Positions 1 to 28,454 of a stretch of 41,625 nt of DNA are shown here, one piece after another. Numbering within the stretch: the first letter of the stretch is position 1; each line of letters begins with the position of its first letter. The DNA is taken from positions 1 through 41,625 of the forward strand of contig JAJSAI010000028.1 of the NCBI GenBank assembly GCA_024274695.1, given 5' to 3'. Under the pieces are notes generated by a model, which did no database searches, had not been told where the DNA came from, and saw only the letters and a list, made by a program, of their open reading frames with translations. This DNA comes from an archaeon. GTDB taxonomy: Archaea; B1Sed10-29; JAJSAI01. Position numbers and translations under genes: made by a program.

Positions 1-509
1 CCGTACTCGGTGAGCGGGAGTATGAGGATCTTGTCCCGGTATAGCACTCCAGTGTCCTCTAGCCTGGTGTACCTTATTCTTTTTTCGGTTTCTTCTTTTC
101 TGGGGGTGACCACTGGCTGTATTGACCCGGTGTAAGAGTCCAGGAAGGTGGTTATAGAGTCTATGACGAGCCTTCTGGGCTTGTATCTTTTGAGGGTCTT
201 TTCTAGTTCGGTTATCTTGCATTTTCCGCTGGTGAAGCTCAGGAACGCGAAGTCCAGGAGTCCTGTGGTTATCAGGTCGTCTAGTTTCCACCCGTACCTG
301 AGAGCCTGTCTCTTGAGGGCGTCAAGGCCCTGTTCTGTTCCCACGTACAGTCCTTTTTCCCCGTGCATTGCTCCCCTGTAAAGGTACTCAAGAGAAAATG
401 TTGTTTTCCCGGTACCCGGCCCTCCTGTGAGCAGGATCACGCTCCCTGGAGGGAACCCTCCTTCTATCAAGGGGTCGAATCCTTTTACGTAGGTTTTTAC
501 CCTGAGCAT
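1..509 (-). CDS. KaiC/RAD55-family RecA-like ATPase (3' end runs off the window)
   Basis: Not in the ORF track. Manual translation gives MLRVKTYVKGFDPLIEGGFPPGSVILLTGGPGTGKTT (Walker A) ... RRLVIDS (Walker B). The frame is open to the window edge. Confidence 0.9.
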   Translation of the reverse strand, partial: MLRVKTYVKGFDPLIEGGFPPGSVILLTGGPGTGKTTFSLEYLYRGAMHGEKGLYVGTEQGLDALKRQALRYGWKLDDLITTGLLDFAFLSFTSGKCKITELEKTLKRYKPRRLVIDSITTFLDSYTGSIQPVVTPRKEETEKRIRYTRLEDTGVLYRDKILILPLTEY

Positions 510-569
510 CCGAGACCATCTCCCCCTTTAAGGAATGTAAAAAGCTTTTGTGTTAAAAAGGGTTTCGGT

Positions 570-1271
570 TCACTGGAAGAAGGCTCCTACTTCCACGTCC
601 ACTCCCTTGGACAGGGTGAACGGGATCCACGCTAGCGGGTGGACGGTGTCCGTCATTCTTTTTATCCGGAGCATTCTCTTTTCTTCTTCAAGCTTCATTT
701 CTATGGTCCCGTTGGTGAGATACTCCAGGGTTGTTATGACCTGGGGGGAGTGTATTCCTTCTTCTAGCACGAAGAAGCTCGTGTAGTTGTTCTCGGCTGC
801 TTTGGCGGTCACGAGCTGCACGAACTTGTACACGCTCCTTTCCTCGTTATGCAGCAGCAGGTCTGACAGAGAGTCTATGACCAGCACGCCTCTTTCTCCT
901 TTCTTGAACGCTTCCTGTATGAGTATTAGCAGCTCGTCCAGGCGGGTGACGCTTGACAGCACGTTTTCCCCTTGCTTCGCGCCTATCCTCCAGGAGTACG
1001 CGTCTATGAATGTTAGGCGTTCACTGTACCTGCTTATGTCAAAGCCCCTGGCCTTCATCTGGGCCTTGATGCTTTCAGGGGATTCTGTTGTTGTGACGAA
1101 GACCACGTTTTCTCCTTTTGTCAGGGTATGGTATGCTACTTGTCTCACGAGCGTGGTCTTTCCGGTGCCAGGGAATCCTATCACGAGCACTGCCGAGTTC
1201 TCTGGGACTCCGCCTTGGAGCAGTTTGTCCAGGCCCGGCACGCCAGTGCTCTTCCTCTTAACTTCGTTCAT
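570..1271 (-). CDS. KaiC/RAD55-family ATPase
   Basis: STGVPGLDKLLQGG N-terminus, Walker A GFPGTGKT, Walker B VLVIDS, C-terminal LEYLTNGTIEM. Confidence 0.9.
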   Translation of the reverse strand: MNEVKRKSTGVPGLDKLLQGGVPENSAVLVIGFPGTGKTTLVRQVAYHTLTKGENVVFVTTTESPESIKAQMKARGFDISRYSERLTFIDAYSWRIGAKQGENVLSSVTRLDELLILIQEAFKKGERGVLVIDSLSDLLLHNEERSVYKFVQLVTAKAAENNYTSFFVLEEGIHSPQVITTLEYLTNGTIEMKLEEEKRMLRIKRMTDTVHPLAWIPFTLSKGVDVEVGAFFQ

Positions 1272-1909
1272 TTGAACACGAACCCCTTCTCGGTTATGCT
1301 GTAGTACAGGGTTTTCTTTTTAACATCCCACGGCCATCGGATTATCTTCATGACCCTTTTTCTCCCTCCTGTCATCTCAAGCCTGAGCACGCCTTCAAAG
1401 GATTCTTCCAGGAACAGCATTACTTCAGGGTGGACCATCTTGTGGTGAATGAGCGCCATCACGTGCCCGCAGTGCTTTTCCCAGGAGAGCAGCCTGTCCG
1501 CCAGGAAGTCTTTTAGCTTGACGGAGTTACTGCAGACCTCCGGGTCAACTCCTCCTAGCCCGCTTTCCATGAAGATGTGGGACAGGGAGTCTATGAGCAG
1601 CCTGTCAAAGCATTCTTTCTGCGTTCTTTTCCTTTCGTGGATCGTTCGGAAGAAGTCTTCGGGCTCTGGGCCCGCGTACACTATGTTATCCCGCCCGAGA
1701 CCGATCGCCGTCAGTTTTTTGATTAGGTTATTGGCTGACGCTCCTGCAACGAGCGCGCCCACGTTCTCCCCTTCTCTCATTCCCCCCAGAAGATAATGTA
1801 GCCCGAGCAGGGTGCCTCCTGCTCCAGAGTCGTGCTCTACCAGCACGTTATGGTCAGGGTATCCTCCGAGCACCTTGTCAAGATACTTTATTCCAGTGCT
1901 CACTCCCAA
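1268..1909 (-). CDS. Degenerate KaiC/RAD55-like protein (Walker A lysine lost)
   Basis: STGIKYLDKVLGG N-terminus, DSGAGGT in place of GxGKT, LLIDS. Overlaps both neighbours, consistent with an operon. Confidence 0.75.
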   Translation of the reverse strand: MGVSTGIKYLDKVLGGYPDHNVLVEHDSGAGGTLLGLHYLLGGMREGENVGALVAGASANNLIKKLTAIGLGRDNIVYAGPEPEDFFRTIHERKRTQKECFDRLLIDSLSHIFMESGLGGVDPEVCSNSVKLKDFLADRLLSWEKHCGHVMALIHHKMVHPEVMLFLEESFEGVLRLEMTGGRKRVMKIIRWPWDVKKKTLYYSITEKGFVFK

Positions 1910-2217
1910 ATTATCCTCTCCAGCTCCCGCAGCCTCAGAAGGTTCCGGGTTATGTTAATGTCAGGAGGGCACACCGCGCGAAGGTATCCCTTGCCAAACT
2001 TTATGCCTATCACTATCTTATCGTCGTAGAAGGTCAGGGACTGCCTGAATCCTTTCGGAATCCCTTTGGACTTGAGGAATCCTAAAACGCTCTTGTCAAG
2101 CGCTGTTTTCCGCCCGTACGAGAGGATCTCCTTTCCCTTGTCGTCCAGGACAACAAGGTTCTTGAGCGCAGGAAACCTTTCTCTGACGATCCTCCTGAAC
2201 TCTTTCTCGCTAATCAT
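1900..2217 (-). CDS. Small protein, possible roadblock/LC7- or profilin-like fold
   Basis: 105 aa with helix, LVVLDDKGKEILSYG hairpin, helix, three strands, helix. First gene of the leftward KaiC operon. The fold call is pattern-based. Confidence 0.55.
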   Translation of the reverse strand: MISEKEFRRIVRERFPALKNLVVLDDKGKEILSYGRKTALDKSVLGFLKSKGIPKGFRQSLTFYDDKIVIGIKFGKGYLRAVCPPDINITRNLLRLRELERIIWE

Positions 2218-2240
2218 CAGTTAAAGGAAAAATGCCTGGG

Positions 2241-2281
2241 TTATTTAAAAGTTTGGTGTGGTGGGGAGAAACGGTTATAAA
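2241..2281. promoter_or_regulatory. Divergent archaeal promoter pair
   Basis: TTTTAAAT on the minus strand (2243-2250) lies about 26 nt before the ATG at 2217. TTATAA (2275-2280), preceded by purine-rich GAGAAACGG, lies about 25 nt before the ATG at 2305. Confidence 0.55.
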
Positions 2282-2304
2282 CAACGGGCCTCTTTGGTAA
2301 GACC

Positions 2305-3039
2305 ATGAGAGTGTCCACCGGAGTCCCCGGGCTGGATGACCTTACTGGAGGAGGGTTCATCCCAGGGACTGTTAACATTGTCGCGGGAACCCCTGGAACA
2401 GGGAAAACAATCCTGGGAATACAGTACCTTGTCGAGGGCGCGAGAAGGGGGGAGAGAGGAATTTACATCTCTCTTGAGGAAAGGGCTGAAGACGTTGCAA
2501 AGTTTGTTTCATCCTTCGGATGGGATATTATCGGGCTCGCTGAAAAAGACTTCCTCAGAATCAAACAGTTCAAGATATCCCCTCCCAAGGAAGAGAGGAT
2601 AGAAGGGGTGACGGCCACCCTGCGCAGGTACAAGCTGCCTCAGGCTGCCGGCGTGCTGGACTTGTACACTACCCTCAAGGACGATGTGGTCACGGGAAAG
2701 TACTCCAGGGTGGTCATAGACTCTGCCAGCGTCCTAAAGTATTCCGCGGACGGGGAGAGGGAGAGCAGGGTTCACCTGGCCAGCTTGTTCAGGTTCCTCA
2801 AGGAACACGGTCTCACCACGATCGTCATAATGGAAAAGAAAACTGCTGATGATCCCTTCGAGTTTGAGGAGTTCCTCGCGGACACAGTGATAAGGCTTGC
2901 TGACTACCCCACCAGGGAGGAAAGAAAAAGAGGCCTGGTGGTAGTGAAGATGAGGGGGTCCAGCGTGGACAGGACCACAAGACCGTACAGGATAGGAGAG
3001 AACGGGATAGAAGTGTACTCAGGAGAGTATCTCTTGTGA
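2305..3039 (+). CDS. KaiC-family ATPase (single domain)
   Basis: STGVPGLD, Walker A GTPGTGKT, SLEE, VVIDS, KMRG arginine-finger motif. Confidence 0.92.
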   Translation: MRVSTGVPGLDDLTGGGFIPGTVNIVAGTPGTGKTILGIQYLVEGARRGERGIYISLEERAEDVAKFVSSFGWDIIGLAEKDFLRIKQFKISPPKEERIEGVTATLRRYKLPQAAGVLDLYTTLKDDVVTGKYSRVVIDSASVLKYSADGERESRVHLASLFRFLKEHGLTTIVIMEKKTADDPFEFEEFLADTVIRLADYPTREERKRGLVVVKMRGSSVDRTTRPYRIGENGIEVYSGEYLL

Positions 3040-3051
3040 GGTGATCTTTGA

Positions 3052-3729
3052 ATGGAAAGGGTTGAGACTGGAGTGAACGGGCTTGACGAAATGCTTAACG
3101 GGGGCATACCCAAGAACTACTCTGTCATAGTCATGGGAGGGCCTGGAACAGGGAAGACCCTGTTCGGCTCGCAGTTCGTTCACACTGGAGCCATGAAAGG
3201 AGAAAGAGGAGTTTACATTACTCTGGAAGAAGCTCCGGAAAGAATAAGAAAGAACATGAAGAACGCGTTCGGCTGGGACTTCAGCAAGCTGGAGAAAAAG
3301 GGGCTCCTGGCCATCGTGCCCGTGCAAAAGTACAACATGCAGCACTTGTATGACGTGATACAGTCAGAGGTCACCCAGAGGCAGACCACGCGGGTGGTGA
3401 TAGACTCTGTGACAATGCTCAAGATGTACTTCAAGAGCGACTTCGAGTTCAGGAGGAACCTGTTCGACCTGCTGGAGCTCCTGTCAAGGCTTGACTGCAC
3501 CACCGTGCTCACTGCAGAGAGACACTACTTCAAGCCAGAGGAAATGAGGCCTGAACTGGAAGAGTTCATAGCCGACGGGGCCATCGCGTTGTACAACCTG
3601 CCCCGGAAGAACGAGAGGGTGAGGGCCCTTGAGATCATAAAAATGAGGGGAACCAGCCACAGCCAGACTATTTACCCGTTCCAGATAACAGGAGAGGGAA
3701 TAAGGGTCATACCCGAGGAGGTACTCTGA
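3052..3729 (+). CDS. KaiC-family ATPase (single domain)
   Basis: TGVNGLDEMLNGG, GGPGTGKT, TLEE, VVIDS, KMRG. A GAGGTGA SD sequence lies upstream. Confidence 0.92.
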   Translation: MERVETGVNGLDEMLNGGIPKNYSVIVMGGPGTGKTLFGSQFVHTGAMKGERGVYITLEEAPERIRKNMKNAFGWDFSKLEKKGLLAIVPVQKYNMQHLYDVIQSEVTQRQTTRVVIDSVTMLKMYFKSDFEFRRNLFDLLELLSRLDCTTVLTAERHYFKPEEMRPELEEFIADGAIALYNLPRKNERVRALEIIKMRGTSHSQTIYPFQITGEGIRVIPEEVL

Positions 3730-4506
3730 ATGGCCAAGGCTCACTCGTTCTCTTACCAGATAGGCAAGAAGATTGACACCGCCAAGGTCCAGAAGAAGAT
3801 GGGCGGGAAGCTGATCGGGAGCGTGCTGGAGTCCAGGATAGACGAGATAAAGGTGCACGTTTTCCCGAGCGGCAGAATAAGACTAACCGCCCAGGACAAG
3901 GAGTACTCAGAACTACAGCAGATGATATTCAACAACACGGTCGGCATAATCTCGTTCATAGAAGAACTGATCAAAGCAGCAGGGGTAAATACTGACGCGA
4001 AAACGGTTATGAAAACAGGGAAACAGGATGACGCGTACGATTACGACCAGAGCGTGATAGGAGAAGAAACCAGGATCCCTGCAGGGGTAATGCAGATGAT
4101 CACAATATCCCTGTACCAGTTCGCAGGACAGTTCCAGGCGAGCAGGACAATGACCCAAGCCGGAGAAAAAGAGGGCAGAAGGCTCGTAAAAGAAAAGAAG
4201 CCTAAGAACAAGAAGGAGCTCCTGAAGCTGGTTAAAAAGTTTTTGGAAGAAAACTCTTTCGGTAAAATGGAGGAAGTAAAAGAAGAGAAAAGAAGGCTCG
4301 TGGACGTTATACTGAGAGTAACCTCCTGCGCGTTCGCGTCAGGAGCCCCAAACATTAACGAGGCAATCTGCGATTTCACCAGAGGAGTTATAAGGGGTGC
4401 GTTCGCGGAGTTCAAGGGAGCGGAGACCGTGAGCGTTAAGGAAACAAGGTGCTGGGCCAAGGGAGACGCGTACTGCGAGTTCGAGGTTTACTCCCTGGCG
4501 GCTTGA
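3730..4506 (+). CDS. V4R (4-vinyl reductase) domain protein
   Basis: C-terminal C..C..G..G..KETRCWAKGDAYCEFEV V4R signature. Abuts the KaiC gene. Confidence 0.85.
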   Translation: MAKAHSFSYQIGKKIDTAKVQKKMGGKLIGSVLESRIDEIKVHVFPSGRIRLTAQDKEYSELQQMIFNNTVGIISFIEELIKAAGVNTDAKTVMKTGKQDDAYDYDQSVIGEETRIPAGVMQMITISLYQFAGQFQASRTMTQAGEKEGRRLVKEKKPKNKKELLKLVKKFLEENSFGKMEEVKEEKRRLVDVILRVTSCAFASGAPNINEAICDFTRGVIRGAFAEFKGAETVSVKETRCWAKGDAYCEFEVYSLAA

Positions 4507-8225: not shown

Positions 8226-9494
8226 ATGATAAGCAAGTCGGACCTGAGGGATTATTTTAGGGAAAGGGAAGAGCTTCCAGAAGACATAATGCCAAGAGAA
8301 CTGCAGGTCCCGACCAAGGAAAAGCAGGTGATCTCAGTAATAGGCCCCAGAAGGGCCGGCAAAACGTATTACTTTTTTTCACTAGCGAAAAAACTCGGGT
8401 CATACGCCCACCTCAATTTTGAGGACACACGACTGGCCGAGGCCACTGGCAAGGAAATACGGGACATCCTCAGAGAATACATAGCATTGTATGGAAAGCG
8501 ACCGAAGCACATTTTCCTTGACGAAGTGCAAGAAATCCCAGGATGGGATAGGGCGGTCAGGGAACTGCACGATCTCGGGAAGTACAGGCTGTTCGTGACA
8601 AGTTCTAGCTCCAAGCTCCTGAGCAAAGAGATAAGCAGCAGACTAAGGGGAAGGAGCCTTTCATTCCTCATACTCCCATTCAGCTTCCGGGAATTCCTAA
8701 GGTACAGGAAAACGAAAACAAGAAACCTCTCGCGGGACGAGGAAGCCATTGTCAGGAGCGGTCTCTCGGAGTACCTTGAGTTCGGAGGATTTCCTGACGT
8801 GGTGAAAACCGAGCACAAACTAAGAATACTCAAAGAGTACTACGAGATGACACTGTTCCGGGACTTCGTGGAAAGGCATGGGGTACTAAACATTGAACTG
8901 GCGAGAACGCTTCACGCGTTCATAGTGCAAAATCACTCTCGTGAAATCTCGGTCAGGGCAGCGTACAACAGGATAAGCTCTGTCACGAGGGCTGGAAAAA
9001 ACACCGTGTATGATTACATGGAAAAACTTGAGGACACCATGTTCTTTTTCATGCTGAAAAAGTACTCGCCCAAAGCCCACTTGAGGGAGACCTGGCCCAA
9101 AAAAGTCTACTTGTGCGACACTGGTCTGAGCAAGGTAGTGCGGCCGTCCCCTGACCTAGGGAGGCTCATGGAAAACGCGGTGTTCCTTGACCTCCTGAGA
9201 GAAAAAAACACGAACCCCCTGCTCGAGACATACTACTTAAAGCTCAAGGACGGAGAAGTGGATTTTGTGATAACAGAAGGAAACATGCCCTCCCAATTAC
9301 TACAGGTTACTCTCGCTTCATCCGAGGACGAGCTCGAGCGCAGGGAAGTCCGGAGCCTGATAAAAGCCGGGCGCCTGCTAAGGTGTAAGGATCTCAGGAT
9401 AATAACCTGGGACCACGAGGACGAGAAAAACGTGAGGGGCAAGCGAATCGTGCTGACTCCCTTGTGGAAATGGCTGCTGCAGAGGAGGTTATGA
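8226..9494 (+). CDS. COG1373-type AAA+ ATPase (AAA_14 plus DUF4143)
   Basis: GPRRAGKT, LDEVQ, LRGR, PFSFREF, FGGFP, KKVYLCDTG, MENAVF, EVDF, PLWKWLL. Confidence 0.9.
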   Translation: MISKSDLRDYFREREELPEDIMPRELQVPTKEKQVISVIGPRRAGKTYYFFSLAKKLGSYAHLNFEDTRLAEATGKEIRDILREYIALYGKRPKHIFLDEVQEIPGWDRAVRELHDLGKYRLFVTSSSSKLLSKEISSRLRGRSLSFLILPFSFREFLRYRKTKTRNLSRDEEAIVRSGLSEYLEFGGFPDVVKTEHKLRILKEYYEMTLFRDFVERHGVLNIELARTLHAFIVQNHSREISVRAAYNRISSVTRAGKNTVYDYMEKLEDTMFFFMLKKYSPKAHLRETWPKKVYLCDTGLSKVVRPSPDLGRLMENAVFLDLLREKNTNPLLETYYLKLKDGEVDFVITEGNMPSQLLQVTLASSEDELERREVRSLIKAGRLLRCKDLRIITWDHEDEKNVRGKRIVLTPLWKWLLQRRL

Positions 9495-18071: not shown

Positions 18072-18761
18072 TCACACTCTTATGCAGTATGACTTCCGCG
18101 TAACATGTCTTCCTCTAGGGTTGTACCTTATCATCTTCGCCTCTGACGCGGTGTACCTCAAGCCCTTCTCGGAATGCAGGTAGTTAAGCACTCTGAGGGC
18201 TATCGGCTTGTAACCGTAGTAGACGTTAATCCCCTCTTTAACTTCCTTGGTGTAGACAAGTTCTGCCTCAGGATGGTACCGTGATAATATTTCCGTGTAC
18301 CCGAGCATCTCTTCCAGGACCTCTTTTATCTCTTCAGGGTCGCCTCTCAGCTGGACCTCAACCTCATAGTACTGAGTCCCTTTTTTTGAGCACACCCAGC
18401 ACGTCCTGTCCTTGTACTCTATCTTGACCCTGCCGGACACACTGACATCAAAGAACCCTTCAGGATCAAGAGAGCCTGTCACTGTAACGTTCACCGCACG
18501 GTTGTCCTCCCACTCGAAAGAGTAAGAAGGACTGAAAAGGTCTGTTTCCACCTTCTTTTTTATCATTTTCTCTATAACGCTCCTGCTGCCGGGAACTAGC
18601 TTGTTGGCCACGTAGATGGACTTGCACGCCGGACACCTGGTTACCACTATCTTTTTAGGGATCCTGACGACCTCATGAGTTTCCAGGTAACATTCCTTGC
18701 AGAATCCCTTGTACATGTCCTTGTCCGTACTCCCGCACTTGGGACAGAACCTCCTGGCCAT
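18072..18761 (-). CDS. NMD3-family ribosome biogenesis protein
   Basis: Four CxxC pairs (CPKC, CKEC, CPAC, CWVC) and YYEVEVQLR. Start trimmed to MARRF. Confidence 0.8.
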   Translation of the reverse strand: MARRFCPKCGSTDKDMYKGFCKECYLETHEVVRIPKKIVVTRCPACKSIYVANKLVPGSRSVIEKMIKKKVETDLFSPSYSFEWEDNRAVNVTVTGSLDPEGFFDVSVSGRVKIEYKDRTCWVCSKKGTQYYEVEVQLRGDPEEIKEVLEEMLGYTEILSRYHPEAELVYTKEVKEGINVYYGYKPIALRVLNYLHSEKGLRYTASEAKMIRYNPRGRHVTRKSYCIRV

Positions 18762-18846
18762 CACCATAACTCCGCAGCCCACTCTTTTAAAATTTACCAG
18801 ACAAAACACAGAAAGGTTTATCTTCGCAAAAATGCCAATACCTAGC

Positions 18847-19356
18847 ATGAGATGGTGGAATTTCCTGCAAAGGAAAAAGAAAAGCAGAATGGCGCTCGCC
18901 AGGGGAGAAAAGCTACTGCTAAAAGAAAGGTACCTTGGCGAAGCAGAGCTCTTAGACAACGCCAAAGCACTTCACCACGAGATCAAGTTCGTTGACCCAA
19001 TAACCAAAGAGGACAGGTCAAGGCTGGAGTACAGGGTTTACAAAACAATCTCGGGGCTCAAAAGAGGGGAAGTACTGAACCTGAGGACTGAAGAAAAATT
19101 TGAAAAGCAGGGGCTTGCGAGCAAGCTACTGGACACGGCCATAAGAAAGATGGAAGAGGAAGGAGTTAATTTTGTAGTCCTCTCCCTTTCTCCGGAAAGG
19201 AGATCGTTAAAACACGCTGAGAAACTGTACCGCAAGAAAGGGTTCGTGCCAGTATCAGAACTACCCAAAGAAACAGCAATCAAACTCCTCGGAAAAGAAG
19301 AGTACGAAGCGGTAATGAAGCATCTTCCGGACAGGGTGCTTGTCAAGATACTGTAG
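18847..19356 (+). CDS. GNAT-family N-acetyltransferase, paralog 1
   Basis: TEEKFEKQGLASKLL (motif A) and AEKLYRKKGF (motif B). Confidence 0.8.
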   Translation: MRWWNFLQRKKKSRMALARGEKLLLKERYLGEAELLDNAKALHHEIKFVDPITKEDRSRLEYRVYKTISGLKRGEVLNLRTEEKFEKQGLASKLLDTAIRKMEEEGVNFVVLSLSPERRSLKHAEKLYRKKGFVPVSELPKETAIKLLGKEEYEAVMKHLPDRVLVKIL

Positions 19357-24324: not shown

Positions 24325-24846
24325 ATGCGCTTCAGGATCCGCGACTTTCTTCAAAAGAAGAAAAAAGGGAAGATGACGATCGCGAAAGGAGAAAAAGTGA
24401 TAATGAGGGAAGAGCCCGGCGGGGCGTTCAGAATAAGAGAAGACAGGCTGGAAAAAGAGAGGTACGGGGCGATCACGTTCATTGATCCTGTGACAGGTAA
24501 AGAGTACTCACGGGTAGCGTACAGGATAGACGAGAAAAAATCCGGGCCAAAGCCAGGATATATCTCGTGGGTTTACACCGAAGAAAAGTTCAGGGGAGAA
24601 AAACTCGCGAGCCTTCTTCTGGACAAAGTCCTCTCTAAACTAGAAGAGGAAGGCGCGCACTACGTGATGCTCAGGTTCTCGCCGCTGGAAGGATCCAAGG
24701 AAACCGCTGAGAGATTGTACCGCAAGAAGGGATTCGTGCCAGTATCAGAACTACCCAAAGAAACAGCAATCAAACTCCTCGGAAAAGAAGAGTATGAAAA
24801 AATCATGAAAATCAAGCCCGACGAAGTGTTCGTGAAAGTGCTGTAA
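24325..24846 (+). CDS. GNAT-family N-acetyltransferase, paralog 2
   Basis: VYTEEKFRGEKLASLLL and AERLYRKKGF. Clearly homologous to 18847-19356. Confidence 0.8.
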   Translation: MRFRIRDFLQKKKKGKMTIAKGEKVIMREEPGGAFRIREDRLEKERYGAITFIDPVTGKEYSRVAYRIDEKKSGPKPGYISWVYTEEKFRGEKLASLLLDKVLSKLEEEGAHYVMLRFSPLEGSKETAERLYRKKGFVPVSELPKETAIKLLGKEEYEKIMKIKPDEVFVKVL

Positions 24847-24895: not shown

Positions 24896-25429
24896 TCAGA
24901 AAGATCCTCGCGTGCGCGGGTACTGCCCCCTGACCCCTCTCCTGATCCTTTTCTCGTCCCAGTCCCGCGGGATGATTCCCTGCTCCTTGCACCAGCGCAC
25001 GTGAGACCGCGCGTAGGAGGGCGGCCTTCCCAGCCTCCTTTTCTCGTACTCGTACCTCCTGCCCCCTGGCAGGGAGTCAAGCAGTGTCTCCCAGTTGGTC
25101 TTCCACCGGGGATGGTACCCTAGCGACAGAATCGCGTTTTTCACCGCAGAACGATCCCGCTTGTTGCAGTATACGATTAGCGCGCTGTACTTCCGGCCAA
25201 AGGCTGAAAGGTTAACCGAGTACTTCAAGGACAGGATCCTGCCCTGTTCCACCAGCGGTTTCAGGAGCTCTGCCAACCGGGCCATGTTCTCGGGCTTGCC
25301 TCTCACGATCCACTTTCCCCTCTCCAGGAAGGGCGCTGCAGGCTTTCCCGGCCCAGCCATCCTAACAAAGAACTTGTCCCTGGTCACGCGGATCACAAGC
25401 TCGCCTCCACCACCAGCCCGTGGTCGCAC
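24896..25429 (-). CDS. Hypothetical protein, Bles03/DUF1917 (phosphothreonine-lyase-like) pattern
   Basis: GKW ... G.I..LKYS ... LIVYC ... LG ... WKTN..T motif order, recalled for this family and not verified by HMM. Confidence 0.5.
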   Translation of the reverse strand: MRPRAGGGGELVIRVTRDKFFVRMAGPGKPAAPFLERGKWIVRGKPENMARLAELLKPLVEQGRILSLKYSVNLSAFGRKYSALIVYCNKRDRSAVKNAILSLGYHPRWKTNWETLLDSLPGGRRYEYEKRRLGRPPSYARSHVRWCKEQGIIPRDWDEKRIRRGVRGQYPRTRGSF

Positions 25430-25568
25430 GGGAAAAGTTTATAGTCCCGGGCGTATTTAAAGGAGTTCAGGGAATGGGCGCGGGCGGGGAGATGTTCATC
25501 CGCGCGAGCTGGACCCTGTGGGCAGGGTACCTGGAGTACGTGGCCGCGGCGGTCCTAAGCGCCTTCCT

Positions 25569-25632
25569 TGCATTTAGTAAAAGCTTATTTACTAAATGCA
25601 CACATTTGGTAAAATGAAGTTTACTAAATGCA
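25569..25632. repeat. Two tandem 32-bp palindromic units (13-6-13)
   Basis: TGCATTTAGTAAA-AGCTTA-TTTACTAAATGCA (25569-25600, perfect inverted repeat), then CACATTTGGTAAA-ATGAAG-TTTACTAAATGCA (25601-25632). Confidence 0.92.
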
Positions 25633-25668
25633 AAGGTTTTTAAATGAGTTCGGCCTACTTCTCCTGCG

Positions 25669-26859
25669 ATGGACAAGAGCGTGTTCTCCAGGATCGTGCT
25701 GGAGAGCGAGAAACTAAAGCAGAGGGCTTCGGAACTAGAGTTCAGAAGGTATTTGTACCCTGAAGTAAAACGCGTGCCAGAACAGTTCTTCGTAGGAATC
25801 TATGGGATGAGGGGAATCGGCAAGACCACCCTCTTACTACAATTGGCCAGCGAGAATCCTGACAGCCTGTACTTTTCAGCGGACTGGTTGCACGTGAGAA
25901 TGACGGGAGTGTACGAGGTTGTAAAAGAAGGAGTAAGGCAGGGATTCAGGAACTTTTTCGTTGACGAGATACACTCCCAGCAGGACTGGACTTATCATTT
26001 GAAAACGCTTTACGATGAAGGAGAATGCAGAGTATTCTTTACGGGCTCTTCTGCCCTGAACCTTAGGCAGGGCGCGGACCTCTCAAGGAGAACGGTAATG
26101 TATCACATGAAGCCAGCTTCCTTCCGGGAGTTCCTGTGCCTCAAGCTGGGAAAACGCTTGCCCGCTGTTAGTCTGAAAAGTCTGCTAGACCACAAAAAGC
26201 GGAAGACACTGCTGAGCAAGCTGGCACCGTACTCAGAGCATTTGGAGGAGTATTTTGCCAGGGGAGGAGTACTGTACCAGGAACCAGGCGAGCTATTCTA
26301 TAAGATCATGCGCAACATGCTGGACCGGTGCATGACCCATGACCTGATGGCCCTCAGGGACGTTAACATTAACGTTGAACAGGACGCGCTCCAGATCCTG
26401 AAGCTCATCGCCTGGTCCAGCCCGCTGGAAGTGAACTACGCGAGGATAGCAGACAGTCTGGAGATCAGCAAGCCCACTGTCAAGAGCATGGTGTTCTTAT
26501 TGCAGAAAGCAGGGCTTGTGAGAGTAGTAGAGCCCTGCGCAAAAGGACATGCAGGAATAAGAAAAGAACCCAAGATACTGTTGAACATTCCCCTCAGACA
26601 CTTCTTGTGCCACGAGACCGGGAAAACTCCCCCGGTAGGAGGGCTTAGGGAAGACTTTTTCGTCCAGCACGCTGACCCAGAATGCTATCCTAAAACAGAG
26701 AGGGGGGCAAAAACCCCCGACTACGTTAAGGATGGGACAACATTCGAAATCGGCGGGGCCTCCAAAGCTAGGGTCCAGGGACAAAAAGTAACGGTGGTGG
26801 ACGAACTCTCGCTAGAGCCTGACACGATCCCATTGTTCCTAACAGGCTTTACCTATTAG
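25669..26859 (+). CDS. COG1373-type AAA+ ATPase with wHTH and nuclease-like C-terminus
   Basis: GMRGIGKT, FVDEIH, TGSS, DLSRR, SFREFL, HTH (YARIADSLEISKPTVKSMV..L.KAGL), PD.....FEIGG..K. Confidence 0.88.
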   Translation: MDKSVFSRIVLESEKLKQRASELEFRRYLYPEVKRVPEQFFVGIYGMRGIGKTTLLLQLASENPDSLYFSADWLHVRMTGVYEVVKEGVRQGFRNFFVDEIHSQQDWTYHLKTLYDEGECRVFFTGSSALNLRQGADLSRRTVMYHMKPASFREFLCLKLGKRLPAVSLKSLLDHKKRKTLLSKLAPYSEHLEEYFARGGVLYQEPGELFYKIMRNMLDRCMTHDLMALRDVNINVEQDALQILKLIAWSSPLEVNYARIADSLEISKPTVKSMVFLLQKAGLVRVVEPCAKGHAGIRKEPKILLNIPLRHFLCHETGKTPPVGGLREDFFVQHADPECYPKTERGAKTPDYVKDGTTFEIGGASKARVQGQKVTVVDELSLEPDTIPLFLTGFTY

Positions 26860-26921
26860 CATTCAGTAAAACAAGATTTACCAAATGCATGCATTTAGTA
26901 AAACAAGATTTACCAAATGCA
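26858..26921. repeat. Two tandem 32-bp palindromic units (13-6-13)
   Basis: AGCATTCAGTAAA-ACAAGA-TTTACCAAATGCA (26858-26889) and TGCATTTAGTAAA-ACAAGA-TTTACCAAATGCA (26890-26921). Same motif as 25569-25632. Confidence 0.92.
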
Positions 26922-27887
26922 GGTGAAGGGCTTGAAAAGGGCTTGCGAGTGGACCGTCCGGCCGGAGCCGCCGTACCACTTTGACGGGAACATGCACAAG
27001 CCCTCGCACTTCCCGACTCCTGACAGGGCCTGGGAGCCTGGCAGGTACTGGCAGACCCTGTTGTGGAAGGGCAGAGCCTACGGGCTACTCCTGGAAAACC
27101 AGGGCACTCCCTGGAGGCCCGTGGTCAGGGTGAGCGTGTACGCTGACCGCAGACCCGGAAAGCACGCGCTGCAAGAGCTAGAGCAAGAAATAGGCTACCG
27201 GTTCAACTTCTGGCAGGATGTCTCAGGATTTTACAGAAGATACCGGAAGGATCCCACGATAGGCAGGCTCGCGCGCAAGTGGGCTGGGATGAAGCCATTA
27301 TGCTTTTGCTCCTTGTACGAGCTGCTCATCGTTTACGTAACGCTCCAGAACGCCACGGTGCGCAGGACCGTGCAGATGATGGAAAACCTGTTCCGCGCGT
27401 ACGGTCCGAGGCCAGGTTCGCTGGAAAACATCTGGCCGTGTGGTGGCCGCCTGAAAAAATCGCGCTGGGGTCGAGCGAGCAGGAACTCAGGAGACTAAAA
27501 CTCGGGTACCGGGCCAAGACAGTGATGCGCTTGAGCCAGCAGTTCGCTTCCCGTGAGATAAGCGAGGAGAACATTAGGGGCAGGGACAAGCAGGCTGTCC
27601 AGAAGAGAATGCTCGGGTTATACGGGATAGGCCCTGCGAGCGTGGAGTACTTGTTGTTCGAGTACGCGTACCTCCTGGACGAGCTCAGGGTGATCCCACC
27701 CTGGGAGCAGAAGATCCTATCAAGGCTCTTGTTCAACAGACCCGGAGCGCCAGCGCAGGAGATCCTCAGGTTCTTCGGGAAATACCCTGGCTACGAGAAG
27801 CTCGCCTTCCACTTGCTCTGGGAGGACCTCTTCTGGAAGCACCAAAAGAAAAATATTCCTTGGCTGGAGAAAGAGATAAGAATGTAA
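26917..27887 (+). pseudogene. HhH-GPD DNA glycosylase (AlkA/Ogg-like) split by a frameshift near 27406
   Basis: The first frame gives ...SLYELLIVYVTLQNATVRRTVQMMENLFRAYG. The second frame continues EARFAG...ELRRLKLGYRAK...LYGIGPASVEYLL (HhH). One base appears to be missing at GGT-CC-GAG, which may be an assembly error. Confidence 0.75.
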
Positions 27888-27911: not shown

Positions 27912-28454
27912 ATGAGGCTCTTCAGGCGCGGGCGCAAGAAAAAAGAACAGCCCCTGCAGAAGAAAACGCGAGACAGGATGGTGCTCGCTAGGGGAGAAAA
28001 GCTGATAATGCACGAAAGAGAGTCACTGTACAGTTATGACACTGTGACCGGCAAGACAGAAGGAATAGAATCAAAAAGACTTTCCTTCGTGAACCCGGTC
28101 ACTGGGGAAGAAGAATCAACGGTACACTTCTGGGTAAAGAAAACGCCGAATGGGATCAAGGAGGGTTCAATAAAATGGGTGCACACAGAGCGCGCCTTCA
28201 GGAACGAAGGCCTTGCACAAGAGCTCCTTAAAAGAACTATTGAGAAACTGAGAGAAGATGAGGCATCATACGTGATACTGTACTACAGTCCCCTGGAAAA
28301 TCCTGAAGCCGCTGAAAGAATATACCGGCGCGCTGGATTCGTGCCCTTGTCAGAAGTCCCACGAGAGCTCGCCGAAAGGTACATTGGAGGAAGGTGGTAC
28401 CAGAGGCTGTCCGAAAAGGACAAGAAGAAGATTTTCTTCCTTCCACTCCACTAA
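27912..28454 (+). CDS. GNAT-family N-acetyltransferase, paralog 3
   Basis: WVHTERAFRNEGLAQELL and AERIYRRAGFVP. Shares MVLARGEKL and FVNPVTG with paralogs 1 and 2. Confidence 0.8.
   Translation: MRLFRRGRKKKEQPLQKKTRDRMVLARGEKLIMHERESLYSYDTVTGKTEGIESKRLSFVNPVTGEEESTVHFWVKKTPNGIKEGSIKWVHTERAFRNEGLAQELLKRTIEKLREDEASYVILYYSPLENPEAAERIYRRAGFVPLSEVPRELAERYIGGRWYQRLSEKDKKKIFFLPLH

Follow-up and report, generated by a model that had tools for sequence, protein, structure and literature searches.

What are two pairs of palindromes doing on either side of a single gene? The locus that raises this question lies in a 41,625-nt stretch of archaeal DNA (contig JAJSAI010000028.1 of assembly GCA_024274695.1, hereafter the window), and the gene encodes an ATPase of the COG1373 family, a family also known by its AAA_14-DUF4143 domains or, in PADLOC, as PDC-S01. 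An earlier note on this DNA had described the palindromes and offered two explanations for them: a single-gene cassette mobilised by a host Xer-like recombinase, or binding by the ATPase to the two flanks of its own gene. Judging from sequence comparison, the four palindromes are most likely docking sites of the protein encoded between them, and the recurrence of the layout in relatives suggests that the gene is self-controlled and moved as a compact unit. We thus favour, with moderate confidence, the reading that the upstream pair is an operator for the encoded protein and that its second copy, the downstream pair, marks where a transferable module of one gene ends on the 3′ side. For PDC-S01, which has no mechanism reported in the parts of the source available to us (PMC12988326), this conserved cis-architecture, with a pair three helical turns apart at the promoter and a second copy at the 3′ end in some archaea, is a first concrete and testable handle on what the winged helix reads.

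Two phased pairs of palindromes bracket the ATPase gene

Direct inspection of the window located the palindromes described in the earlier note at 25569-25632 and 26858-26921, two per flank (Table 1). All four copies are 32 bp long, with 13-nt inverted arms around a 6-nt spacer. As the note had it, palindromes 1 and 2 are arranged head to tail before a TATA-like box, with 4 nt between the end of the pair and the box; palindrome 2 covers the position of the transcription factor B recognition element (BRE) upstream of this box. The first ATG of the 396-codon open reading frame (ORF) of the ATPase, at 25669, lies 24 nt past the box, a distance that fits a leaderless archaeal transcript, and we infer that the ATPase transcript is leaderless. 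On the other side of the gene, palindrome 3 begins inside the ATPase stop codon (TAG, 26857-26859), the ATG of the following ORF (26917-26919) lies within palindrome 4, and an in-frame TAA (26899-26901) means that this ORF cannot start further upstream. The 57-nt intergenic region therefore consists entirely of palindromes 3 and 4, which overlap the stop and the next ATG as had been noted.

We then looked at how specific the motif is to this gene. A scan of the 41,625 bases with the 13-mer half-site consensus TGCATTTRGTAAA, allowing up to 3 mismatches, returned 15 matches where 6.43 were expected; only 1 of 100 shuffles reached 15. Eight of these matches are the eight arms themselves (0, 0, 3, 0, 2, 1, 0 and 1 mismatches), one is an overlapping self-match in palindrome 1, and the remaining six are scattered, each with 3 mismatches. 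No half-site with 2 mismatches or fewer was present outside the four palindromes in the 41.6 kb. Repeat finding grouped the palindromes into a single direct-repeat family of four members with spacings of 32, 1257 and 32, and the 64-nt pairs folded far better than mononucleotide shuffles (z of −8.9 and −6.0).

The left and right spacers differ, as the earlier note had stressed (AGCTTA and ATGAAG as against ACAAGA twice). When the upstream pair was compared with the downstream one, the arms differed at 7 of 52 positions and the spacers at 8 of 12 (p=4.4e-4), and the two pairs match one another only at 14 mismatches in 63. A decaying scar would lose arms and spacers alike; both pairs thus appear to have been retained by selection as predicted binding sites. 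The same pattern of kept arms and diverged spacers between pairs was seen by eye in a related archaeal locus, L002. Alignment of the flanks, done as a test for a target-site duplication, gave no direct repeat outside the window pairs. Just outside them (25557-25568 and 26922-26933) is a weak inverted match of about 12 nt, which may be due to chance and which lengthens the inverted repeat to 78 nt at 73%.

Several familiar kinds of repeat were set aside. Rfam and tRNA scans of the window were empty, which leaves no known RNA or tRNA attachment site. The palindromes abut, without spacers between units as in a CRISPR array. As for an RNA hairpin or terminator, the A/G mismatches at arm position 8 are not compensatory on one strand, and the upstream pair precedes the TATA-like box.

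Table 1. Positions of the palindromes and of the associated features in the window.
Feature	Position	Strand	Description
Palindrome 1	25569..25600	.	13-6-13, perfect arms, spacer AGCTTA; distal unit of the upstream pair
Palindrome 2	25601..25632	.	Left arm with 3 mismatches, spacer ATGAAG; promoter-proximal unit of the upstream pair
TATA-like box TTTTTAAA	25637..25644	+	24 nt before the ATPase ATG
ATPase gene	25669..26859	+	396 aa; COG1373 / AAA_14-DUF4143 / PADLOC PDC-S01
Palindrome 3	26858..26889	.	Spacer ACAAGA; begins within the ATPase stop codon
Palindrome 4	26890..26921	.	Spacer ACAAGA; includes the ATG of the following ORF
HhH-GPD DNA glycosylase gene	26917..27887	+	Downstream neighbour, outside the module; frameshift-split near 27406-27417

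A repeat pair phased by 32-33 bp precedes the gene in relatives

The family sample comprised 80 loci, the best matches in genome contigs to the alignment of the ATPase (A1) among at least 544 confirmed matches; 15 are archaeal (36-49% identity) and the rest mostly Bacteroidota (about 30%). ORF starts in the relatives were set mechanically, and several of the statements on archaea come from printed flanks judged by eye. By this inspection, 13 of the 15 archaeal loci carry a tandem pair of dyad-symmetric units of about 32 nt immediately upstream of a TATA-like box, and the window's arrangement of pair and box was also seen in L001, L006, L011-L014 and L025. L001 encodes the protein closest to the window ATPase among the matches listed (49% identity); its half-site departs from that of the window at 1 of 13 positions, with a conserved junction to the TATA-like box. 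A second archaeal clade (L011-L014 and L025) uses a different palindrome, of 18 nt, and the start-to-start distance is again 32.

An automated test gave the same spacing. In the 170 nt before each gene, the best 14-mer direct repeat (offset 18-50) was recorded, and ORFs of 300-520 aa that share a locus with a family gene served as controls. The best repeat had an offset of 32 or 33 in 43 of 84 family ORFs as compared with 20 of 246 controls (Fisher p=5e-16); for strong repeats (at least 12 of 14 positions) the figures were 27/38 and 4/30, respectively. The offset is 32 in archaea and mostly 33 in bacteria. These operator 14-mers are nearly unique to their own gene, with 14 other matches in 482 kb. 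The similarity between operator windows climbs with protein identity (local scores of 8.6, 10.0, 12.4 and 34.5), while windows taken 110 nt further upstream stay at 6.6-6.9 in all bins, even above 70% protein identity. At the level of sequence, a phased pair with this 32-33 bp spacing before the gene is a hallmark of the ATPase family in archaea and bacteria, and the repeat sequence changes between protein clades with the phasing kept. A search of plasmids with the upstream-pair region, in distant mode, gave no match.

The two archaeal operator types pair with two recognition-helix types. The earlier note had asked whether homologues generally carry flanking palindromes that co-vary with the helix: the upstream pair recurs, and its match with the helix is seen in these two archaeal groups; the distribution of the downstream copy is narrower.

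Downstream copies and flanking direct repeats

In 6 of 15 testable archaeal sources (the window, L002, L004, L006, L007 and L014; L009 was left out of the count as its flank is too short) the operator pair has a copy that falls on the stop codon or closely follows it; none of the bacterial loci has one. A stricter count gave 3/29, since over-extended ORF starts made L002, L007 and L014 drop out. The genes on either side of the downstream pair converge in L002, and L004 has its next gene on the opposite strand; the orientation of these neighbours links the 3′ copy with the ATPase gene rather than with a promoter of whatever gene follows. In L004, moreover, the stop codons of both the upstream gene and the ATPase fall at the first bases of the repeat, and the second unit of the downstream copy matches only as far as the middle of its spacer.

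To see how far bracketing extends in the family, 400 nt upstream were compared with 400 nt downstream of each gene. Of 86 family ORFs, 3 had flanks that were too short, leaving 83; L009 and L017 have no complete ORF. Flanking direct repeats of at least 40 bits were present in 17 of these 83 and in 5 of 243 controls (p=1.8e-7), and 60 of the 83 had no flanking repeat of 30 bits or more. The five repeat-flanked controls are another AAA_14-DUF4143 gene, an ATPase_2/AAA_14-like gene, a tandem paralogue pair, a Fic gene and a gene of unknown type. Two loci deserve mention here: an ATPase_2 (archaeal-type AAA+) gene with a 131-nt flanking repeat at 93% (L046:12610-14133), and a DUF4172-Fic gene with one of 113 nt at 90% (L032:267-1364). 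As ATPase_2 and Fic genes are similarly bracketed, the insertion signature may not be confined to COG1373.

When 16 flanking repeats were searched through their whole locus at up to 25% mismatch, 12 occurred exactly twice, once on each side of the gene; the multi-copy ones were an array of 7 in L045, 3 copies around two cassettes in L008 and 4 matches in L050. With exactly two copies per locus for these 12, a generic genome repeat of the repetitive extragenic palindromic type is unsupported for most. In bacteria the flanking repeats are duplicated host sequence. Among pairs that score 35 bits or more, the 20 printed have lengths of 21-241 nt and identities of 84-100%. Perfect flanking repeats occur, for example, in L030 (a Parabacteroides chromosome), L066 (Planktosalinus lacus) and L045 (Mongoliitalea lutea). 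What is repeated in L066 spans positions −3 to +131 of a sugar-transferase gene, which is intact on the downstream side and truncated on the upstream side; in L028 it is the final 80 codons of a gene on the minus strand, of which likewise one copy is truncated and the other intact. The right repeat often begins 0-20 nt past the stop codon, as in the window. Strong hairpins were found in some of the repeats (L030, z −7.1; L070, z −6.9) and none in L066, L045 or L056; given this mixed evidence, the targeting of hairpins was dropped as a shared property.

Tandem arrays of two family genes were observed in four loci (L006, 10001-12526; L007, 2295-5000; L008, 8465-11197; L069, 5822-8606). The cassettes of L008 and those of L069 are separated by a repeat sequence present in three copies, the third copy of L069, after the second ATPase, being weaker. 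In L006 gene 1 is followed by a copy of operator pair A, right after which come a distinct pair, B, and gene 2's promoter.

The borders of the module and its distribution

We compared genomes that carry close versions of the gene. L011 and L012 have a common block of 1377 nt at 92% identity, which runs from the operator pair to 119 nt past the gene; outside it, the flanks and neighbouring genes are unrelated. The homology between L024 and L030 runs from the end of the left repeat of L030 to the stop codon, and in L051 and L060 the module is 91% identical within syntenic flanks of 70-80%. In all 11 repeat-bearing loci with a long partner, homology between genomes was confined to the repeat-delimited segment, within 12 nt. 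Stably syntenic homologues also exist (L019/L021/L062 and L057/L076). The archaeal family genes have housekeeping neighbours that differ from genome to genome.

On a FastTree phylogeny of 83 family proteins, the presence of a flanking repeat (23/80 at 30 bits or more) needs 16-17 changes of state, at least 13 of them forced by well-supported branches (shuffled mean, 20.3). With so many changes on the tree, the repeats must have arisen or decayed many times. The excess of repeats, the sharp borders and the scatter over the tree suggest repeated insertion of the gene as a unit of about 1.3 kb, a signature relevant to the spread of defence-type genes and to the question whether some of these are selfish elements. 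In a general sense, the single-gene cassette of the earlier note is supported by the flanking repeats, by borders that coincide with them and by the unrelated contexts; the Xer mechanism proposed with it is not.

The gene tree also disagrees with taxonomy: the gene of a Thermococcus bin (L010) is placed beside a Micrarchaeota one (L004), and Actinomycetota and Pseudomonadota bins are nested in Bacteroidota clades, a pattern suggestive of frequent horizontal transfer or of errors in binning. Empty sites, which the earlier note had proposed to look for in relatives, were sought at one plasmid locus, L081 of Aliarcobacter, where all related plasmids that keep both flanks also keep the ATPase.

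The ATPase is a divergent member of COG1373

The protein has an AAA+ domain, a predicted winged helix and a putative C-terminal PD-(D/E)xK-like domain, in that order. Its N-terminal part matches AAA_14 (Pfam PF13173, 2.3e-22, 79.8 bits for a cut-off of 27), and the Walker A G-K-T is invariant across alignment A1. The match to DUF4143 (PF13635) is at 20.1 bits, below the 28.1 cut-off, and spans residues 240-305 only; the Pfam scan also gave a weak helix-turn-helix match. Seven PDC-S01 models of PADLOC match the protein over residues 35-293 (best 6.8e-21), PADLOC having no curated cut-off for them. In the AlphaFold2 model, built from 41 sequences (predicted local distance difference test, pLDDT, 89.7), the winged helix is present and the last 75 residues form an alpha-beta-beta-beta-beta-alpha unit. 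E328, D351, E360 and K366 are invariant or nearly so and align with the E..D..E-x-K of canonical DUF4143 paralogues, relative to which the nuclease-motif lysine of the window protein is displaced. DUF4143/COG1373 is tabulated as a PD-(D/E)XK family of unknown function in the part of that survey consulted (PMC3424549). The label given in the earlier note, an AAA-winged helix-nuclease-like protein, agrees with Pfam, the model, the structural matches below, the conserved acidic residues and lysine, and this tabulation. By these features the window ATPase is a divergent subfamily of COG1373.

Through its PDC-S01 membership, the protein is also a candidate defence protein. PDC-S01 ranks fourth in frequency among prokaryotic defence candidates, with an enrichment in archaea and no validation, according to the portion of the report seen (PMC12988326). 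The nearest relatives of the window ATPase are 46-47% identical and come mostly from Micrarchaeota and other DPANN bins. A phage collection gave a single weak protein match (MT839230.1, 27.8%).

The best solved structures retrieved by Foldseek were 2qby_A and 2v1u_A, archaeal Orc1/Cdc6 on origin DNA, followed by ORC, Apaf-1/CED-4, RuvB and DnaA; whole-chain TM-scores were low (0.29-0.43 overall, 0.29-0.33 for the Orc1/Cdc6 matches). The likeness to Orc1/Cdc6 is purely structural, as no Cdc6/Orc Pfam family matched at E≤0.01, and a sequence search of the PDB gave no match at the same threshold. Prediction of a homodimer (two copies, alignment A1) scored 0.00 for a mark of 0.42, which speaks neither for nor against oligomerisation.

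What binds the pairs, and how the module moves

Nothing but the ATPase gene is shared by every locus with paired repeats, which makes the gene's own winged helix the most economical candidate binder, and we take it to be the probable one. The upstream pair would offer two 32-bp sites three helical turns apart, with four half-sites on one face of the helix. As the pair covers the BRE position, the most likely effect is autorepression, with an oligomer of the protein covering the BRE/TATA region of the leaderless gene. Operator, promoter and ORF would then form a compact module, of about 1.2-1.5 kb, in which the operator travels with the gene and which would have been inserted repeatedly at unrelated places, leaving flanking direct repeats. 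In some DPANN archaea the flanking repeat would be the operator pair itself, and the downstream pair of the window would be a second operator copy at the 3′ border of the module, kept for binding, so that the protein probably sits on the two sides of the gene and forms a loop or a boundary. Of the two explanations in the earlier note, binding of the ATPase to both flanks of its own gene is thus the better supported, by the phased pair, the sequence that follows the protein clade and the kept arms; the binding itself, like repression, looping and the mode of movement, is predicted. The module might move through staggered cuts made by the protein itself, giving long duplications, through homologous pop-out and pop-in of circles carrying neighbouring sequence or an operator copy, or through a factor acting in trans.

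Several points weigh against an operator that also marks the border of a module. The best upstream repeat has another offset in 41 of 84 family ORFs, and the scarcity of the downstream copy in archaea, with none in bacteria, indicates that binding at two flanks is not a general need of the family. Since bacterial repeats are host sequence and archaeal ones the operator, a common process for both would have to be assumed. The operator windows are A+T-rich, which may inflate their similarity scores, and the link between helix and operator concerns two archaeal groups only and is confounded by common descent. The specificity of the motif is known for the window alone, so that it could occur at other genes elsewhere in the genome, and a distant paralogue in the window (8226-9494) has no such flanking palindromes. 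Finally, no binding, expression or mobility experiment on any family member was found in the parts of the literature examined.

Could the protein do all of this by itself? The COG1373/PDC-S01 genes would then be a new kind of autonomous single-gene mobile element, the ATPase-winged-helix-nuclease binding the pairs as the ends of the element and cutting and joining DNA. The long duplications would be target sequence in bacteria and an operator-bearing end or operator-type target in archaea. This we regard as unlikely, and we think it equally doubtful that a module of about 1.3 kb inserts at new sites by this means and leaves duplications of 21-241 bp, represented in DPANN by the operator pair. 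Were it true, a very common prokaryotic defence candidate would be at least partly a selfish element. The enrichment of flanking repeats (17/83 vs 5/243), recurring across the tree, the length and identity of the pairs (21-241 nt, 84-100%), their origin in pieces of host genes (L066, L028), the right border at the stop codon, the module in unrelated contexts (L011/L012), the conserved nuclease-like residues, the second downstream unit of L004 matching only to mid-spacer and the cassette arrays with one common repeat (L008, L069) all argue for it. Against it, the fold of the protein is not one known from transposases or recombinases, stable synteny is seen for some homologues (L019/L021/L062, L057/L076), most family ORFs (60/83) lack a flanking repeat of 30 bits or more, and no empty site or circular junction was seen, the single plasmid hunt being empty. 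Homologous integration of excised circles could, moreover, give the repeats without any activity of the protein.

The other explanations place the activity outside the ATPase or give the protein another task. If the pairs were sites of another regulator, or if the downstream pair were the operator or promoter of the glycosylase gene, the bracketing would be incidental: the downstream pair does overlap the glycosylase start codon, and its A+T-rich arms could act as promoter of a leaderless transcript. We consider this improbable, to a clearly greater degree, since the operator sequence tracks the ATPase clade, the ATPase gene is the sole element that loci with such pairs have in common, and neither the convergent genes of L002 nor the opposite-strand neighbour of L004 fits it. 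Mobilisation by a host Xer-like tyrosine recombinase, with the 13-6-13 palindromes as pdif-like core sites, appears more improbable still. It would account for the geometry, for the direct-repeat bracketing of a single gene and for the divergence of the second downstream unit of L004 from mid-spacer onward, but strand exchange between the flanks would be blocked by the difference between left and right spacers, and phased tandem pairs fixed beside a TATA-like box in orthologues are what is expected of an operator. Bacterial relatives are, in addition, bracketed by ordinary host sequence of 21-241 nt and not by recombinase core sites, and, as the earlier note had remarked of the window, no recombinase was seen: in 53 ORFs scanned with Pfam (51 picked by eye from 115 ORFs of at least 90 aa, and two short ORFs beside the palindromes), domains of recombinases, integrases or transposases were absent. 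The structural matches to Orc1/Cdc6 bound to origin DNA, together with repeated inverted sites on either side of an initiator-like gene, could also suggest a cryptic integrated replicon or origin, marked by an initiator-type protein and repeats like origin recognition boxes (ORB). We give this hardly any credence: no Cdc6/Orc Pfam family matches, the family is common in bacteria, only a coding gene and no A+T-rich unwinding stretch lies between the sites, and there is no skew change at the locus.

Comparison with known systems

The predicted order of ATPase, winged-helix and PD-(D/E)xK-like domains is that of COG1373 proteins, from which the window protein differs by its sub-cut-off DUF4143 match and its displaced nuclease lysine. 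A shallow check of passages from the literature on this family found no mention of cis-elements, phased operator pairs or flanking repeats.

Orc1/Cdc6 binds near its own gene. The window resembles this archaeal system in having an AAA+ protein with a winged helix and repeated dyad-symmetric sites by the protein's own gene, and differs from it by the extra nuclease-like domain, the absence of sequence membership and the wide bacterial spread of the family; unlike ORB sites, the palindromes bracket a coding gene and not an unwinding element. Winged-helix regulators of defence systems that repress themselves, such as those of the BrxR or CapW type, offer another parallel, with palindromic operators at the regulator's own promoter and a defence-type gene. 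In the present case the effector, an ATPase-nuclease, itself carries the DNA-binding domain, and the operator comes as a phased pair that is repeated at the gene's 3′ end.

With pdif and Xer-dif sites the window has in common the inverted arms around a 6-bp spacer and the bracketing of a single gene; it differs by the unequal spacers of the two flanks (8/12 positions) and by tandem pairs phased by 32 bp and, in orthologues, fixed at the promoter. Integron cassettes are likewise single genes between imperfect palindromic repeats (attC), and the two-cassette arrays with one common repeat (L008, L069) recall them. They are, however, typically promoterless, whereas in the window the repeat is at the promoter, a single gene is bracketed and the scanned ORFs include no integrase; compared by eye with the attC consensus, the window repeats have no conserved end motifs of that type, and some repeats of the family are pieces of host coding sequence. 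As to transposons with terminal repeats, the window has no target duplication outside the pairs, and the modules of bacterial relatives are bracketed by long repeats of host sequence.

The neighbourhood of the gene in the window

The window is a piece of archaeal chromosome that encodes a tRNA-splicing endonuclease, NMD3, an ATP-dependent DNA ligase and aminoacyl-tRNA synthetases, as well as a CPSF-like nuclease and KaiC-like ATPases. No compositional break or skew change was detected at the ATPase locus. Residues 1-163 of frame 1 of the downstream glycosylase match residues 19-181 of a 341-aa homologue, P0122, and the ORF at 27279-27887 matches residues 186-341, which places the break near 27406-27417; P0122 has 18 additional N-terminal residues. 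The split glycosylase is either a pseudogene or an assembly error.

The paralogue at 8226-9494 is a second, canonical AAA_14-DUF4143 gene (PDC-S01, 6.4e-90), 27% identical to the bracketed ATPase over the N-terminal 143 residues. It has just an 8-9-nt repeat with an offset of 34 (8170 and 8204), on either side of a TATA-like stretch. Closer to the palindromes, a 47-codon ORF without family match (25474-25617, plus strand) lies behind a TATA-like box and ends within palindromes 1 and 2, and a 177-aa ORF on the minus strand (24896-25429), also without family match, has a weak PADLOC match to a type IIG enzyme (7.6e-4).

Three paralogous GNAT acetyltransferase genes are present (18697-19356, 24325-24846 and 27912-28454). 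Two of them, 41% identical, bracket the ATPase and glycosylase genes together with the unknown ORF, and a 105-nt patch in GNAT paralogues (19215-19319 vs 24705-24809) is 90% identical, which suggests recent gene conversion. At the start of the window (3-4506), five ORFs for KaiC-like ATPases are clustered on both strands and are followed by one for a V4R-domain protein.

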